From positions 1 through 4,369 of the IMG/VR virus record IMGVR_UViG_2585427751_000011: 4,369 nucleotides of DNA; one strand, given 5' to 3'. Shown piece by piece: positions 1-4,369 of the stretch; the first letter of the stretch is position 1; every line of letters starts with the position of its first letter. The notes under the pieces are model-generated. The model was not told where the DNA came from. It was given only the letters and a program-made list of their open reading frames with translations, and searched no databases. Made by a program: the position numbers and the translations under genes. This DNA is from a virus. Lineage: Duplodnaviria > Heunggongvirae > Uroviricota > Caudoviricetes.

Positions 1-228
1 ATCAAACTCCATTTGATATTAACTTTTGTTTATATCTTTATGTGGTTTATTTCAAAAATAACTCAATAAAAAACAAATAGATACAGAGCAAATTTAAAAA
101 TTTGAAATTAACCAGTTGATATTTACTAAGTTAATATCTAACATATCAAACATACACTAGTGAGTAACTCAATAGAGTAGCACACATGAGTAATAAAGTT
201 TGCCATAGAAAGTACACAGGGGGCCATT
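1..228. promoter_or_regulatory. AT-rich leader upstream of ner; putative early operator/promoter region of a Mu-like element
   Basis: No ORF in the six-frame track here. Strongly AT-rich compared with about 50% GC in the downstream coding DNA. Contains repeated TTGATAT/ATATCAA motifs (13-19, 116-122, 143-149) and the inverted repeat ATCAAA-n5-TTTGAT (1-17). In phage Mu the operator/Pe region lies immediately upstream of ner. Confidence 0.4.
116..144 (+). promoter_or_regulatory. Candidate sigma70-type early promoter (-35 TTGATA 116-121, 17-bp spacer, -10 TAACAT 139-144)
   Basis: Hexamers match consensus at 5/6 and 4/6 with a 17-bp spacer, oriented toward ner. An IHF-consensus match (TAAccagTTGATA, 109-121) overlaps the -35, and ACTAAGT (125-131) lies in the spacer. 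Such matches arise easily by chance in AT-rich DNA. Confidence 0.2.
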
Positions 229-474
229 GTGAGTCTTATTGAAGATTGGTCTTCCGCCGATATAAAGGCAGCCTTAGAAAAACGCGATACCAATTTGTCA
301 CGTTTATCAAGGGAAAATAATTTGCAGCCTAGGACTTTGGGTAATGCTTTGCGAGTTCCCTACCCTAAAGGTGAAAAGATAATTGCTAGGGCTATAGGTG
401 TAGAGCCACAGGTTATTTGGCCTACTAGATATGAACGACGTGCGCGGAGGAAATATGTGGGTTGCAATGACTGA
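229..474 (+). CDS. ner: Ner-like DNA-binding transcriptional regulator (Mu Ner / Nlp family)
   Basis: 81-aa ORF with a GTG start preceded by AGGGGG (218-223) at 5-nt spacing. The translation (…DWSSADIKAALEKRDTNLSRLSR…TLGNAL…YPKGEKIIARAIGVEPQVIWPTRY…) aligns by eye with Mu Ner (…DWHRADVIAGLKKRKLSLSALSR…TLANAL…WPKGEQIIANALETKPEVIWPSRY…). Position directly upstream of a MuA-like gene matches Mu gene order. Confidence 0.85.
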   Translation: MSLIEDWSSADIKAALEKRDTNLSRLSRENNLQPRTLGNALRVPYPKGEKIIARAIGVEPQVIWPTRYERRARRKYVGCND

Positions 475-2539
475 ATTGATTTCATTCAGTGACCTACCTA
501 GTTCTTTGGCAGGTCTGCACAAAAAAGCAAAGAGGGAAGCGTGGAAAACGCGGCTAAAACCAGGGGTAAAAGGGAAAGTTTTAGAGTGTGAAATAGGGGC
601 TTTGCCTTTAACTGTTCAGCAGGCAGTACGCGAACGCTATGCCCTGCAACTGATGACGCAAAAAGCCGATGAATCACCGGCTCCGGTAGTGACAAAGGCC
701 AGGCGCTCACCTGCCGTGGTTGATGCGGTGGAGGCATATCGCGGATCACCACAACTGATGCTCGAACGCCTCAATGCCCTGACTGAAAACCAGCGCCAGG
801 TGGCTGATGCACGAATCGCGATCGTCAGCGAAGTTCTGAAAGTCGCGCAACAACCTGGTTTCAGCTGTGCGAAGGCTATCCGGTTTATCGTTGACAACCT
901 GGCACGTTCGCAACTGGACGAGCGCATTGTGGCAATGGTTGAGACGGCGAACGCCAAAAAGGGAAACAGCCGTGCGTTGAGTGAAATCACGCTGAAACGC
1001 TGGATTGCAGCCTTTAACAAGGCGCAGAACGCCGCTGAACGCCTGCTTTTGCTGGCACCTGGTAAGCGCCAGGAAATAAAAGCCGAAGATATTAACTGGC
1101 TGCCCGAATTTCTGGCGCAGTATCGCCAGTCAAACGGCCGACCAATGACCGAGGCTTACGAGGATTTTGTCGCTGAATGGCAGCACCGGCACGCTGATGA
1201 GCCTTATATGCTCGATATCATGCCGTCTTACGACACCATCCGCCGCGCAATGAAGAAACTGCCGGAAGTGGTGAAACAAAAAGGCCGGGTGACCGGCAGT
1301 GAATACCGCCAGCTTGAGGGATTCACGCGCCGCGACTGGTCCAGAATGCCGGTGAATTATGTCTGGATTGGTGACGGTCACGGCATGAAGCTGAAATGCA
1401 GGCACCCGGTTCACGGGCGGCCATTTGCACCGGAAGTGACCTTTGTTATCGACGGTGGCACGCGCTTTGTGGTGGGCTGGAGCCTTGACCTGGCTGAAAA
1501 TGTTTTCGCCGTAGCCGGTGCCATACAGTACGGTATTCGTAATCACGGCAAACCGTTTCTGTATTACTCGGATAACGGTTCCGGGGAAACCGCCGACATC
1601 CTGGATAAGGAAGTTGTGGGGATCCTGCCGCGACTGGGGATTAATCACCCAACCGGGATTGCCGGTAACCCGCAGGGACGGGGCATTATCGAACGGCTTA
1701 ACCGCACGTTACCGATGCGTATAGCCCGTAAATACCGCACCTATTTCGGGAAAGGTGCAGATCGCGAGACGTTACGCAAAACCAACCGCGATTTACGCTC
1801 GGCATTTACCGCCCTGCAACAGGGCAAACGGCTGAACGCCCGGCAACAGTCAGCGATGCGTGATTTACCGTCCTGGTCTGAACTGATTGATGCCATTCGT
1901 GATGGCGTTGAGTGGTACAACAACCGGCCGCACGATGAATTACCCATGAAGCCGAACGGGAAGCATTACAGCCCGGCGGAGTTCAGAAAAAAACGCCTGG
2001 CAGAAGAGGACACGGAAATTGAATGGCTGTCCGATGTTGAGCTGCGGGATATGTTCCGGCCAATGGTGGAACGCCCTGTAAGACGCTGTGAAATACGCTG
2101 GCTGAATAATATTTACTACGCGCCCGAGCTGAGTGATGAGCATGGCCGCAAGGTGCTTATCAGCTATGACATTCATGATGCCGAACGAATTACCGTACGT
2201 CGCCCGGATGGCAGCGTGATTTGCGAGGCGGTATGGGACGGCAATAAACGCGAAGCCTTCCCGGTCAGCGCGGAATACTACAAACAGCAGCAACGCCTTA
2301 AAGGTATGCGTAAACGCGCAGAGGAAAAAATCCGTGATGCCGAGGATGAGGTTGTCAACGTGCTGGAGCACAAGCCGCAGGAGCCCTGGCTGGAAAACAT
2401 ATACCGCCCTGTGGGTAATACGGTGACCGTTCAGCAACCTGCCGTTGATGATGAGCCTGATGAAGAATACGAGCGTAATTTCCAGCGGGGATTGCAGTTG
2501 CTCGAAGCGAAATTAAAAGAAAATGACCCTCTGGCCTGA
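455..2539 (+). CDS. A: Mu-type DDE transposase (MuA homolog); ORF is open from 431 but ATG 455 is the better-supported start
   Basis: Long ORF (702 aa from 431, 694 aa from 455). N-terminus from 455 (MWVAMTELISFSDLPSSLAGLHKKAKREAW) aligns with Mu A (MELWVSPKECANLPGLPKTSAGVIYVAKKQGW). GGAGG at 446-450 precedes ATG 455. Core contains DDE-like motifs: VWIGDGHG (D codon 1373-1375), YYSDNGSG (D codon 1571-1573), GIIERLNRT (E codon 1691-1693). C-terminal IYRPVGNT…DDEPDEEYER resembles the MuA C-terminus IFRPSGNT…DDEYETERDEY. Overlaps the ner 3' end by 20 nt. Confidence 0.9.
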   Translation: MWVAMTELISFSDLPSSLAGLHKKAKREAWKTRLKPGVKGKVLECEIGALPLTVQQAVRERYALQLMTQKADESPAPVVTKARRSPAVVDAVEAYRGSPQLMLERLNALTENQRQVADARIAIVSEVLKVAQQPGFSCAKAIRFIVDNLARSQLDERIVAMVETANAKKGNSRALSEITLKRWIAAFNKAQNAAERLLLLAPGKRQEIKAEDINWLPEFLAQYRQSNGRPMTEAYEDFVAEWQHRHADEPYMLDIMPSYDTIRRAMKKLPEVVKQKGRVTGSEYRQLEGFTRRDWSRMPVNYVWIGDGHGMKLKCRHPVHGRPFAPEVTFVIDGGTRFVVGWSLDLAENVFAVAGAIQYGIRNHGKPFLYYSDNGSGETADILDKEVVGILPRLGINHPTGIAGNPQGRGIIERLNRTLPMRIARKYRTYFGKGADRETLRKTNRDLRSAFTALQQGKRLNARQQSAMRDLPSWSELIDAIRDGVEWYNNRPHDELPMKPNGKHYSPAEFRKKRLAEEDTEIEWLSDVELRDMFRPMVERPVRRCEIRWLNNIYYAPELSDEHGRKVLISYDIHDAERITVRRPDGSVICEAVWDGNKREAFPVSAEYYKQQQRLKGMRKRAEEKIRDAEDEVVNVLEHKPQEPWLENIYRPVGNTVTVQQPAVDDEPDEEYERNFQRGLQLLEAKLKENDPLA

Positions 2540-2546
2540 AATAAAA

Positions 2547-2576
2547 AAATAACCCGAGCGGCGACTCAGGTTATTT
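2547..2576 (+). terminator. Stem-loop with flanking A/T runs between A and B; possible weak intrinsic terminator or attenuator
   Basis: AAATAACC (2547-2554) pairs with GGTTATTT (2569-2576), with inner pairs 2556-2558 to 2565-2567 and a 6-nt loop. Sits 8 nt after the A stop codon and is followed by GATT. The stem is AT-rich and therefore weak. Confidence 0.25.
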
Positions 2577-2614
2577 GATTAAACAAAGGAACTACACAAA
2601 CGCGAGGTAATAAT

Positions 2615-3136
2615 ATGACCGATATAAACGATGTAATCAAGACCATTGATGAACTTATTGATGGCGGCGTGCTGACGCAGTATGCCATCGCCAGAGAGGC
2701 GGGAATTTCCGACGGCACATTATCGGCTTTCCGCAAGGGGAAATATAAAGGCGATAACGCCGCTGTGGCTGCTTCCCTGCGCTCCTGGTATGAGAACTGG
2801 AATAAACAAAGCGCACTGCCGGAACCGCCGCAGTTTGTGGAAACTCAGACAGTCCAGGAGCTGCGCGCACTGTTTCAGGCGGTTCGCCTGATGGGCTGTA
2901 TTAACGTTATTGTGGGCGTACCGGGTGTGGGTAAAACGGCCACTGCCCGTAATTACTGCCAGGAGCAACCAAACACCTGGATGATCACCCTGTCACCCGC
3001 GCACTCCAGCGTCACGGAGTGTCTGCTGGAGCTGGCCGATGCGCTGGGGATTGATTACACCCGCGCGAACAAAGGGGCATTATCTGTAAACGGTGAGCCG
3101 GGCTTACGGCCCGGCCCCTGCGGAGGGCAAATATGA
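2615..3136 (+). CDS. B: MuB-like AAA+ ATPase (target DNA activator), 3'-truncated: N-terminal HTH and Walker A only; probably non-functional
   Basis: 173-aa ORF with GAGGT (2604-2608) 6 nt before the ATG. The HTH region YAIAREAGISDGTLSAFRKGKYKGDN matches Mu B (QIALESGLSTGTISSFINDKYNGDN); PEPPQFVETQTV is nearly identical; Walker A is GVPGVGKT; WMIT…ECL.ELA matches. Similarity ends after …KGALS (about 3085) and the ORF stops at 3134-3136. Mu B is about 312 aa and continues with the Walker B region (…LVIIDEADHL…); no such continuation exists in any frame downstream. Confidence 0.8.
   Translation: MTDINDVIKTIDELIDGGVLTQYAIAREAGISDGTLSAFRKGKYKGDNAAVAASLRSWYENWNKQSALPEPPQFVETQTVQELRALFQAVRLMGCINVIVGVPGVGKTATARNYCQEQPNTWMITLSPAHSSVTECLLELADALGIDYTRANKGALSVNGEPGLRPGPCGGQI
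3097..3115 (+). other. Perfect GC-only hairpin (7-bp stem GCCGGGC/GCCCGGC, 5-nt loop TTACG) at the point where MuB homology ends
   Basis: Base pairs 3097-3103 with 3109-3115 read directly from the sequence. It lies within the last, non-homologous codons of the truncated B ORF and about 18 nt upstream of ATG 3133. Confidence 0.45.
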
Positions 3137-3486
3137 ATGAACATCACACTGTGGCAGCAACAGATGATTCAGGCCTTCAGGTCAGTGGTGACAGTCCTGT
3201 CACGGTACTGGCAGAAGTGCGTTGCAGTCGTGCGCAGTTTCGTCGTGCGGGGTTCCTGTTCATGCGGGGACGCCAGCAGGTTGACGTCACCCCGGAGCAG
3301 CTTGCCCGACTGGAAGCGGAGCCATGCCTCACTGTACGAATACTACAGACGCCTGGTGATGATGCGGGAGCCGTGGCGGGTGTGGTTCATGCAGAGACCG
3401 GTGCAGATTTAGCCGAAGCCGGACAGGATGCTCCCCGGAAAAAGACCGGCAATAACGCCAGACAGGCGAAAAAGGCTCGCGCATGA
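3133..3486 (+). CDS. Hypothetical protein (117 aa), GC-rich, basic C-terminal tail
   Basis: ATG 3133 is preceded by GGAGGG (3122-3127) at 5-nt spacing. Start overlaps the B' stop (ATGA) and the stop overlaps the next ATG (ATGA at 3483-3486). First codon positions are G-rich, as expected for real coding sequence. No family recognised. Caveat: in GC-rich DNA open frames occur by chance; the alternative ORF 3137-3412 is in the same frame as B'. Confidence 0.45.
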   Translation: MNEHHTVAATDDSGLQVSGDSPVTVLAEVRCSRAQFRRAGFLFMRGRQQVDVTPEQLARLEAEPCLTVRILQTPGDDAGAVAGVVHAETGADLAEAGQDAPRKKTGNNARQAKKARA

Positions 3487-3719
3487 ATTACGCCAACGGT
3501 TACACCGAAACGCAGGCCGACAGTGGCGCGGTGATGTATGCGCTTTATTTCTCCTGCGAGGAAATGATCGCACCGCTGACTGATATCAGCTCGCTGGATG
3601 ATTTCCTGCGCCATTACGAAACCTTCACCGAACCGGAAGGCACACCGGAATTTAAGGCGCACATCAGCCTGCCAGGTGCAACCGCCGCCGGTGAAAAAGC
3701 CGGACCGTCAGAGGAATAA
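3483..3719 (+). CDS. Hypothetical small acidic protein (78 aa)
   Basis: ATG overlaps the upstream stop (ATGA); AAAGG lies 7 nt upstream. Translation has about 14 Asp/Glu against 3 Lys/Arg. The next gene's SD (GAGGAA, 3711-3716) is embedded in its 3' end. No family recognised. Confidence 0.45.
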   Translation: MNYANGYTETQADSGAVMYALYFSCEEMIAPLTDISSLDDFLRHYETFTEPEGTPEFKAHISLPGATAAGEKAGPSEE

Positions 3720-3722
3720 CAG

Positions 3723-4010
3723 ATGACAACCATTTTTATCAAACCCGCGCCGGGATGCCTGATCCGCGATCCGGACACCATGAAACCGCTGGCGCAGGAG
3801 GGAGAGGAAAAACCCTTCACCCCGTTCTGGTGCCGCCGTCTTAATGACGGGGACGTCATTGTGGTGGAAAAAGCGGCTGAAGCAGCACCGGCAGCAGCGT
3901 CTGCAACGACTGATGCCGCCGGAAAACCCGCGGGAGCGGCAGCAGAAAAACCTGCGACTGAAAAACCCGCGACTGAAAAACCCGCAGCATCAGACAAGGG
4001 GACGTCCTGA
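3723..4010 (+). CDS. Small protein preceding the tail sheath gene (recalled as DUF2635 / Mu gp38-like); C-terminal Ala/Pro/Lys-rich tail with (EKPAT) repeats
   Basis: GAGGAA sits 8 nt before ATG 3723; the stop overlaps the sheath ATG (TGATG at 4008-4012). The N-terminal half (MTTIFIKPAPGCLIRDPDTMKPL…FWCRRLNDGDVIVVE) resembles, from memory, the short conserved ORF found just upstream of sheath genes in Mu-like tail modules. The C-terminus is low-complexity, encoded by the tandem repeat. Confidence 0.6.
   Translation: MTTIFIKPAPGCLIRDPDTMKPLAQEGEEKPFTPFWCRRLNDGDVIVVEKAAEAAPAAASATTDAAGKPAGAAAEKPATEKPATEKPAASDKGTS
3945..3989 (+). repeat. 15-bp tandem repeat, about 3 copies (GAAAAACCYGCGACT), in frame, encoding EKPAT-EKPAT-EKPAA; degenerate copy at 3921-3935
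   Basis: Units at 3945-3959, 3960-3974 and 3975-3989 read directly. Copies 1 and 2 differ at one base; copy 3 diverges in its last 4 nt. Confidence 0.8.
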
Positions 4011-4369
4011 TGATTAACTTTGATTATATCGGCGATAACAATCGCATTCCGCTGGTACAGATTGAAATCAATAATTCAATGGCCGTGACCGGCACTCCAC
4101 CACAGCGTCAGGCGGTACTGTTGTTTGGTCAGGCTGCAATGAAAGACACCACCATTCAGGGGCGCGGTCAGCTTGATGTACCAGTACGTATTACCCGAGC
4201 TTCACAAGCAAGAGAACTCTGGGGGCGAGGTTCCATGATTGCACTGATGGTAGAGGAATTTATCGCCATTAACCCTGACACAGAGTTATATGCCATTGCA
4301 CAGGGGGCTGGAACAGGTCAGTCCAGGGCATGCGTGATGAATATCATTGGAACAGCATTGGCAGACGGG
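4010..4369 (+). CDS. Phage tail sheath protein, N-terminal part (Mu gpL-like); continues beyond the window end
   Basis: ATG 4010 with AAGGGG 8 nt upstream; open to the window end (120 codons, no stop). Translation MINFDYIGDNNRIPLVQIEINNSMAVTGTPPQRQAVLLFGQ…RASQARELWGRGSMIALMVEEFIAINPDTELYAIA… fits the remembered N-terminal pattern of Mu-like sheath proteins (…FDNS.A…LL.GQ…A…FG.GS.LA.MV…N…ELW…). Confidence 0.65.
   Translation, partial: MINFDYIGDNNRIPLVQIEINNSMAVTGTPPQRQAVLLFGQAAMKDTTIQGRGQLDVPVRITRASQARELWGRGSMIALMVEEFIAINPDTELYAIAQGAGTGQSRACVMNIIGTALADG

Follow-up and report, generated by a model that had tools for sequence, protein, structure and literature searches.

Mu-like prophages reside in O157 and other strains of Escherichia coli, and one of them, Sp18 of O157 Sakai, has been reported to be intact (PMC2669165). 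In the intact relatives considered here, for which STEC2018-553 (NZ_CP075665.1; locus L001) and the isolate AF39 (NZ_OZ547136.1; locus L012) served as references, the left arm runs c, ner, A, B (310 amino acids), kil, gam, other early genes, gp16/GemA and Mor. These are followed by genes for lysozyme and an Rz1-like LysC, terminase-region genes, the portal (DUF935), F, G, the protease and the major head protein T. After T come genes for an HI1506-related protein, the gp36 family, gp37/DUF1834, a DUF2635 protein, sheath, tube, chaperone and tape measure, and then the distal tail (N-like, P, gp45-48-like baseplate, fibre and an invertible fibre-assembly segment) and a right arm with an invertase, DUF6645/SASA, DUF1378, DUF826, com and mom. 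Here we analyse a stretch of 4,369 nucleotides (hereafter the window; positions 1 to 4,369 of IMG/VR record IMGVR_UViG_2585427751_000011) in which ner, A and a truncated B, here called B′, are directly followed by a short group of genes that ends in a tail sheath gene. A preliminary description had proposed that this arrangement is most simply a deletion-derived defective prophage, with a compact element pairing a transposase and tail genes as the alternative.

We conclude with high confidence that the window represents the leftmost third of a defective Mu-like prophage lying within malX of one E. coli lineage, that it arose by deletion from an extant kind of intact phage found in O157 and other E. 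coli, and that it reflects ordinary decay, the odd gene adjacency being a scar without function. Each of the window segments 1-3084, 3079-3495 and 3494-4369 is 100.000% identical to one and the same intact prophage (GCA_052996365.1, JBFCVG010000001.1), as are the 812 bp that extend from the left terminus through c. The window thus derives, by very recent deletion, from a phage that is living and mobile. Intact prophages at five or more unrelated chromosomal sites, all with a complete B gene and early region, encode exactly the same 694-amino-acid A protein. Similarly, the exact 95-amino-acid DUF2635 protein occurs in 3018 blocks of the assembly collection, and the ten places listed among the matches all lie in Mu-like prophages that have both head and tail modules, with terminase and portal missing from one of them.

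Two deletion junctions lie inside the window. The first, at positions 3079-3084, was located by BLAST breakpoints and a three-way sequence comparison, and consists of a 6-bp microhomology, ATTATC, that B (...GGGGCATTATCCCGCGCC...) shares with the end of T (...GCGGATTATCTGTAAACGG...). It joins approximately codon 157 of B to the last codons of T, and the DNA missing at this point, sized on the parent contig GCA_052996365.1, amounts to 16,943 bp. This deletion took the 3′ half of B, kil, gam, the semi-essential region, Mor, the lysis genes, terminase, portal, protease/scaffold and the major head gene. Immediately past the junction, positions 3085-3132 (plus strand) correspond to the last codon and stop of T and to the hairpin between T and the HI1506-related gene (GCCGGGC-TTAC-GGCCCGGC), as determined by alignment to positions 19995-20054 of the AF39 locus. 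The second junction, at 3494/3495, fuses codons 1-4 of the gp36 family in frame to codons 114-187 of gp37/DUF1834, with the loss of 743 bp. The product is a 78-amino-acid open reading frame (ORF) at 3483-3719 on the plus strand, which matches phrog_490 at profile positions 125-188 of 190 only; its parental genes encode Phage_Mu_Gp36 (139 amino acids) and Phage_Mu_Gp37 (187 amino acids). The sheath gene begins 874 bp after the end of B′ (3136 to 4010), in agreement with the roughly 875 bp estimated at first. It had further been claimed that no head, lysis or late-regulator genes intervene. This is correct in that the lysis, late-regulator and major head genes have been deleted, and incorrect in that the gap contains three small ORFs of the distal head/neck module along with the second deletion.

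The complete 13.1-kb element, of which the window is a part, is spanned by longer contigs (up to 340 kb), and two further deletions are found to the right of the window when the element is compared with AF39. Deletion 3 (5.2 kb) begins at codon 485 of the sheath gene and ends in the 3′ part of P, a baseplate gene, with the microhomology TG, and deletion 4 (3.15 kb) leads from the start of a gp45-like gene into the fibre gene, with the microhomology TAACG. The microhomologies at junctions 1 to 4 thus measure 6, 1-2, 2 and 5 bp. As a consequence of deletion 3 the sheath gene of the element has 485 native codons followed by 38 out-of-frame codons, versus 500 codons in the parent, and its last 15 residues are lost. 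Compared with the intact E. coli prophages, whose corresponding segments are 100% (GCA_052996365.1) or 96-99% (STEC2018-553, AF39) identical, the element lacks about 26 kb in four blocks. It nevertheless has the same termini, the same c-ner-A-B start, the same order of T, HI1506, gp36, gp37, DUF2635 and sheath, and the same right arm of invertible segment, gin, DUF6645/SASA and com-mom. With a parent that is extant and 100% identical, each of the four junctions can be placed to the base.

The element has kept both termini, c, ner, an intact A, B′, a small number of relics of neck genes, the invertible segment with its Gin-type invertase, the DUF6645/SASA gene and com-mom. The right arm up to the terminus is 99.9% identical to AF39. 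The c-like gene (168 amino acids; a weak match to PF02316) lies on the minus strand directly upstream of the window in all loci and is 100% identical to intact copies, so the c-like repressor that one would look for at this place is present. Owing to deletions 1-4, the complete late region (Mor/C, lysis, terminase, portal, head and tail) is absent from the extended loci, and no full-length MuB-type AAA+ target activator is present downstream of A, where only the B′ relic is found. The tail genes are reduced to the truncated sheath, a 94-amino-acid gpP fragment, a remnant of the fibre gene and a fibre-assembly gene. Judging from this sequence, the element cannot make particles, lyse its host or replicate as a phage.

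In the course of events that we envisage, an intact Mu-like phage would have been reduced by four internal deletions at short microhomologies. The c protein would keep the early operon off, and A, when made, would still be able to act on the intact ends, if only weakly and on nearby DNA in the absence of B. The opposite direction of change, with the short form as the ancestor of the intact prophages, is implausible because the junctions cut through the reading frames of B, gp36/gp37, the sheath gene and P. Nothing contradicts an origin by deletion.

The element is inserted in malX of E. coli. Its left flank (uidC-uidB-uidA-uidR-hdhA-malI-malX′) and its right flank (malX″-malY) are 99.8-100% identical to K-12 MG1655. 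For the lineage, flank identity to K-12 is about 99.95%, and on the basis of values of 99.95-100% we rejected Shigella and E. albertii as the host. A split uidA gene (309 + 295 amino acids) is common to those carriers that retain this part of uidA and have genes called. Contigs from isolates, gut metagenomes and Logan runs, and one IMG/VR uncultivated viral genome (UViG), match the window at 99.6-100% identity, and for three loci (L007, L009 and L010) the identity is 100%; the UViG, 4 kb in length, carries junction 1 and does not differ from the window. In the assembly collection, 62 blocks encode exactly the B′ fusion protein and 82 the 78-amino-acid fusion. Copies L002, L003 and L004 differ from each other by 1-4 single-nucleotide polymorphisms (SNPs) and by the insertion or deletion of a 15-bp repeat. 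An apparent divergence of 0.2-0.3% between copies in BLAST comparisons proved to be an artefact of alignments that enter the inverted repeats bounding the invertible segment; the copies really differ by these 1-4 SNPs.

The deletion reading is supported by a megablast search of 5426 complete RefSeq E. coli genomes, in which 250 records matched the window, none of them over more than 71% of its length; among the matches listed, the left-hand part always ends at window position 3084, and the right part aligns to a second place in these records. Two observations have to be set beside this reading. Junction 1 was found in none of these complete genomes, and exact-pattern scans for it were also negative in GTDB species representatives and in JGI metagenome contigs. 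The host lineage is therefore known from draft genomes and metagenomes only. In addition, junction 1 occurs once in a second context, in an element inserted in glpQ (L011 6619-10862; GCA_000700725.1, JNMZ01000005.1). In this copy, c, ner and the 5′ part of A are AF39-like and differ by about 3% from the window up to window position 2626; beyond that position the two sequences agree without exception over the 850 bp that remain before the contig ends, at 3476. At the left terminus L011 has TATAACC, versus TGTAACC in the malX element. As far as the sequence allows a guess, the simplest one is that L011 arose by a crossover of the remnant with a second resident prophage, the alternative being mobilisation by a helper.

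The absence of the junction from complete genomes, together with the fact that in L009 and L032 the window ends one base before the end of the contig, could be taken to mean that two parts of one normal prophage were joined during assembly. However, the same junctions are carried by at least 15 independent assemblies, and they appear identically in contigs of 170-340 kb that were obtained with different assemblers and from different sources (NCBI isolates, ENA metagenomes, Logan and IMG/VR) and that span the whole element into host DNA on both sides. This agreement leaves no room for a chimera, and we regard an assembly error as hardly conceivable. The compact domesticated element raised as an alternative in the preliminary description, with a transposase and contractile-tail genes in a tailocin-like arrangement, is suggested by a sheath gene that follows transposition genes, and would seem reasonable if the window were considered alone. 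Like R-type tailocins, the element has sheath sequence, in its case a fragment of the gene, without capsid genes nearby. Beyond the window, however, this sheath gene is cut at residue 485 of 500 and frameshifted, and the element has no tube, tail assembly chaperone, tape measure, DNA-circularisation (gpN-like) protein, gp45-48-like baseplate genes, 5′ part of the fibre gene or lysis cassette, so that the full tail gene set which might have followed in the extended loci is not there. Neither in function nor in gene content is the element like a tailocin; a tailocin-like device is therefore very improbable, and the candidate can be discarded.

A more serious competitor, though still an unlikely one, holds that the element is a natural mini-Mu kept as a mobile, satellite-like parasite, which intact sibling Mu-like phages move and package. 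Its termini, c, ner and A are indeed 100% identical to those of intact and widely transposed prophages, junction 1 also occurs in the glpQ element, and the rearrangements anchored on its ends, described below, imply that these ends are still used. On the other hand, all other records (at least 14) have the element at the same malX site and in one clone, as one would see after vertical inheritance rather than after spread. Likewise, the left arm of L011 is divergent up to 2626 and identical thereafter, which a crossover explains as well as mobilisation does, and the relic ORFs (half of B, the gp36/gp37 fusion and the truncated sheath) have an accidental rather than a designed appearance. We also considered whether cargo for defence could be a reason for the retention of the element, and rejected this idea, as the retained proteins had no PADLOC match and NCBIfam was uninformative.

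We return to the deletion remnant and to its boundaries with the host. Mu-type ends are present and identical to those of intact copies, with TGTAACCAGGTAAATCATTTGATACC at the left terminus and ...GGTATCAAAAAAATCGCCGCGCTATA at the right. The termini shared by the element and by intact prophages at many sites (TGTAACCAGG... and ...GCGCTATA) contain predicted transposase-binding repeats. Across the copies of the remnant (L002-L010, L025-L033 and L037-L043), which belong to a near-clonal lineage, five different host junctions occur on the left and four on the right, and all nine fall exactly at the terminal base of the element (TGTAACC... or ...GCGCTATA). With flank positions given in the coordinates of the K-12 locus (L014), the combinations are 9175 on the left with 9278 on the right (L039), 9175 with 9443 (L003, L026 and L043), 9103 with 9848 (L004, L027 and L041), 4345 with 9278 (L002, L025 and L037) and 2587 with 9382 (L040), in addition to a left end at 8738 (L005, L006 and L028). 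Some combinations differ on a single side, so that (9175|9278) can be converted into (9175|9443) by a change on the right, and into (4345|9278) by a change on the left. The pattern is one of nested adjacent deletions, of 72 bp to 6.6 kb, which remove parts of malX, malI, hdhA, uidR, uidA and uidB. Four of the seven derived end-points lie at most 600 bp from the junction nearest the element.

A target-site duplication, which might have been expected around a Mu-type insertion, does not flank the remnant: in none of the five left/right flank pairs is contiguous malX sequence duplicated, and between 102 bp and 6.8 kb of host DNA is missing between the flanks. The duplication is lacking because the host flanks have themselves been deleted. 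Attempts to explain the flank pairs by a target-site duplication, or by a single adjacent microhomology deletion, gave no one scheme that fits all classes. In L003 (6569-6574 and 19683-19688), and also in L026 and L043, the hexamer GGTCTG is present on both sides of the element and originates from malX positions 273 bp apart. These flanks give the appearance of a 6-bp target duplication, in a family in which the flanking repeats of intact members are 4 bp long. Matching flanks of 4 bp, ATAA and TACA, were found for two intact relatives (L001 19184-19195 with L045 15676-15690, and the ends of L013/L012). From these two sequence comparisons, this phage group may duplicate 4 bp of its target and not 5 bp.

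Nested deletions anchored on the ends of an element are the classical footprint of intramolecular transposition, known as adjacent deletions from the genetics of insertion sequences and of Mu. Random illegitimate deletion is not expected as the cause in our case, since all nine junctions lie at the last base of the element. This variation in the junctions suggests that the intact transposase still drives deletions beside the element, even without B. MuB normally sends the transpososome to distant targets, and it underlies the cis-immunity of DNA near the ends (PMC2837660). Attacks on nearby DNA would fit the loss of this MuB-dependent target choice and cis-immunity. With B truncated, and with kil and the lysis genes deleted, sporadic expression of A could be survivable for the cell, and nearby targets could be favoured. 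We therefore advance, tentatively and with slightly less than an even chance of being right, the proposal that the remnant is a natural A+ B- ‘mini-Mu’ that is enzymatically alive, whose transposase and ends have repeatedly attacked DNA at distances of 70 bp to 6.6 kb and produced, in one E. coli clone, at least seven nested end-anchored deletions that erode malX, malI, hdhA, uidR and uidA-C; as part of this proposal, the glpQ copy may stem from an intact sibling phage that recombined with the remnant or mobilised it. Our literature search found no paper on a Mu-like prophage in malX, and none on adjacent deletions made by a Mu prophage.

The laboratory constructs known as mini-Mu and the B-defective, non-killing Mu ‘X’ prophages offer a comparison. 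They keep both ends, c, ner and A, their B is non-functional, and kil and lysis genes are absent. In such prophages derepression need not kill the cell, and A-dependent rearrangements beside the prophage are expected. The malX remnant differs from them in that it is natural, was made by microhomology deletions, and keeps neck and tail relics and the whole right arm. Its resemblance to an A+ B- mini-Mu in activity is inferred from variation in the population only. With bacteriophage Mu itself, the element shares the gene order, the families of Ner, the MuA N-terminal domain, Mu-transpos_C and MuB, homologues of gp36, gp37 and gp38, the sheath L, Gin-type inversion, and Com/Mom. In contrast, no megablast-level DNA similarity to Mu was found in the phage collection, and phmmer matches the solved MuA by the N-terminal domain of A only. 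Furthermore, the right terminus of this group ends in TA, where that of Mu ends in CA, and the flanking duplication looks to be 4 bp and not 5 in the two intact relatives.

The gene assignments in the window, including ner, A and B′ next to a sheath gene, are borne out by Pfam and PHROG profile matches. The window has six complete ORFs and one open-ended ORF, all on the plus strand. The ner-like early repressor (229-474; 81 amino acids) matches HTH_35 of Pfam (E=6.7e-27) and phrog_769, annotated ‘transcriptional repressor’ (E=7e-31). It is followed by the MuA-type transposase A, which is intact with 694 amino acids from its ATG (455-2539, in an ORF that opens at 431; phrog_310, E=1.8e-205). 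A contains the domains Mu-transpos_C (PF09299, E=3.7e-17) and HTH_Tnp_Mu_1 (PF02316, E=1.7e-8), and its N-terminus matches the enhancer-binding domain of MuA (1tns) and the Mu c repressor (1g4d). B′, the truncated MuB-type target activator, occupies 2615-3136, and its match to phrog_296 is confined to residues 1-157. Compared with MuB (PDB 8xvb), it aligns to residues 3-156 of 312 (E=5e-34), and thus retains the N-terminal helix-turn-helix and the Walker A motif but lacks the remainder of the AAA+ module as well as the C-terminal domain. Its residues 158-173 are an out-of-frame tail, which results from read-through into the 3′ end of T and intergenic DNA. The HI1506-related protein (FluMu_N) is intact with 117 amino acids (3133-3486; PF17891, E=3e-9; phrog_3622, E=2.5e-65); in intact relatives its gene directly follows the major head gene, and it is annotated in this position in STEC2018-553 and AF39.

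Downstream of the gp36/gp37 fusion, the DUF2635 protein (3723-4010; 95 amino acids) matches PF10948 (E=9e-20). Its C-terminal low-complexity tail contains a 15-bp tandem repeat at 3945-3974 (GAAAAACCYGCGACT, encoding EKPAT), and the copy number of this repeat differs by strain, giving alleles of 90 and 95 amino acids. The last ORF, at 4010-4369, comprises the first 120 codons of the tail sheath gene and is open at the end of the window. A sheath identity had been assumed for it from the start and is supported by profile searches (phrog_5292, E=1.3e-42; phrog_165, E=4e-33). Pfam gave no match for this 120-amino-acid N-terminal piece, and the full-length gene in related loci has Phage_sheath_1/1C. 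An Rfam scan of the window found no match.

The start of the window, positions 1-228, is the divergent c/ner control region, since in every extended locus the 168-amino-acid c-like gene ends one base before the window. This region has a G+C fraction of 0.30 and is 100% identical to intact prophages. By analogy with Mu, it probably contains candidate operators, the early promoter and a transposition enhancer. A single plus-strand promoter-like site was detected in it, at 116-144, in a promoter and terminator scan that performed no better on the window than on shuffled sequence. A 14-nucleotide inverted repeat at 12-25 and 128-141 (TTTGATATTAACTT and AAGTTAATATCTAA), with arms that are 93% complementary, encloses about 100 bp of the control region. 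This repeat overlaps the promoter-like site, and we consider its arms to be candidate operator sites.

In the right arm of the element, a G-segment-like invertible region of 1,327 bp (L003 13216-14542, compared with L002 and L004) is present in both orientations among near-identical copies. It has inverted repeats of about 130 bp at its ends and carries a Caudo_TAP fibre-assembly gene. The occurrence of both orientations indicates that the Gin-type serine invertase appears to be active, or to have been so until recently, though no tail can be built. Between gin and com-mom (L004 15289-17343) lies a gene encoding a 684-amino-acid protein with SASA (sialate O-acetylesterase-like) and DUF6645 domains, for which no defence-system or NCBIfam match was found. 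This gene is intact in most copies of the remnant; in L040, where the element is about 140 bp shorter, its product has 637 amino acids.

With regard to the wider phage group, Sp18 of O157:H7 Sakai probably belongs to it, given matches of 97.5% in O157:H7 genomes and the published description (PMC2669165). Another member, L022 (5995-7677; ENA ERZ27269332, k141_122180), has an internal deletion of its own, by which portal, F and G were lost and a terminase-region ORF was fused to the protease gene, with a 560-amino-acid product. Internal deletions seem common in this Mu-like phage group. In both reference loci a feature annotated ‘tRNA-OTHER’ lies on the minus strand between the genes for F-like head morphogenesis and G-like virion morphogenesis (L001 36909-36988, L012 17169-17248), within the DNA that is deleted from the element.

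The odd gene adjacency in the window is thus the scar of a deletion in a prophage that is decaying, and a supposed ‘transposase plus tail’ device can be struck off the list of candidates. The four junctions of the element illustrate neatly the way in which prophages are pared down. The polymorphism of the host junctions suggests, moreover, that a prophage that is dead with regard to particle formation can keep reshaping the adjoining chromosome through its transposase. The consequences in this case are an inactivated malX and, in some strains, an inactivated uid operon, the basis of the beta-glucuronidase test for E. coli. If the remnant is indeed an A+ B- mini-Mu that is still alive, its variants would document, on the scale of a natural population, how the transposase of a ‘dead’ prophage erodes a genome.

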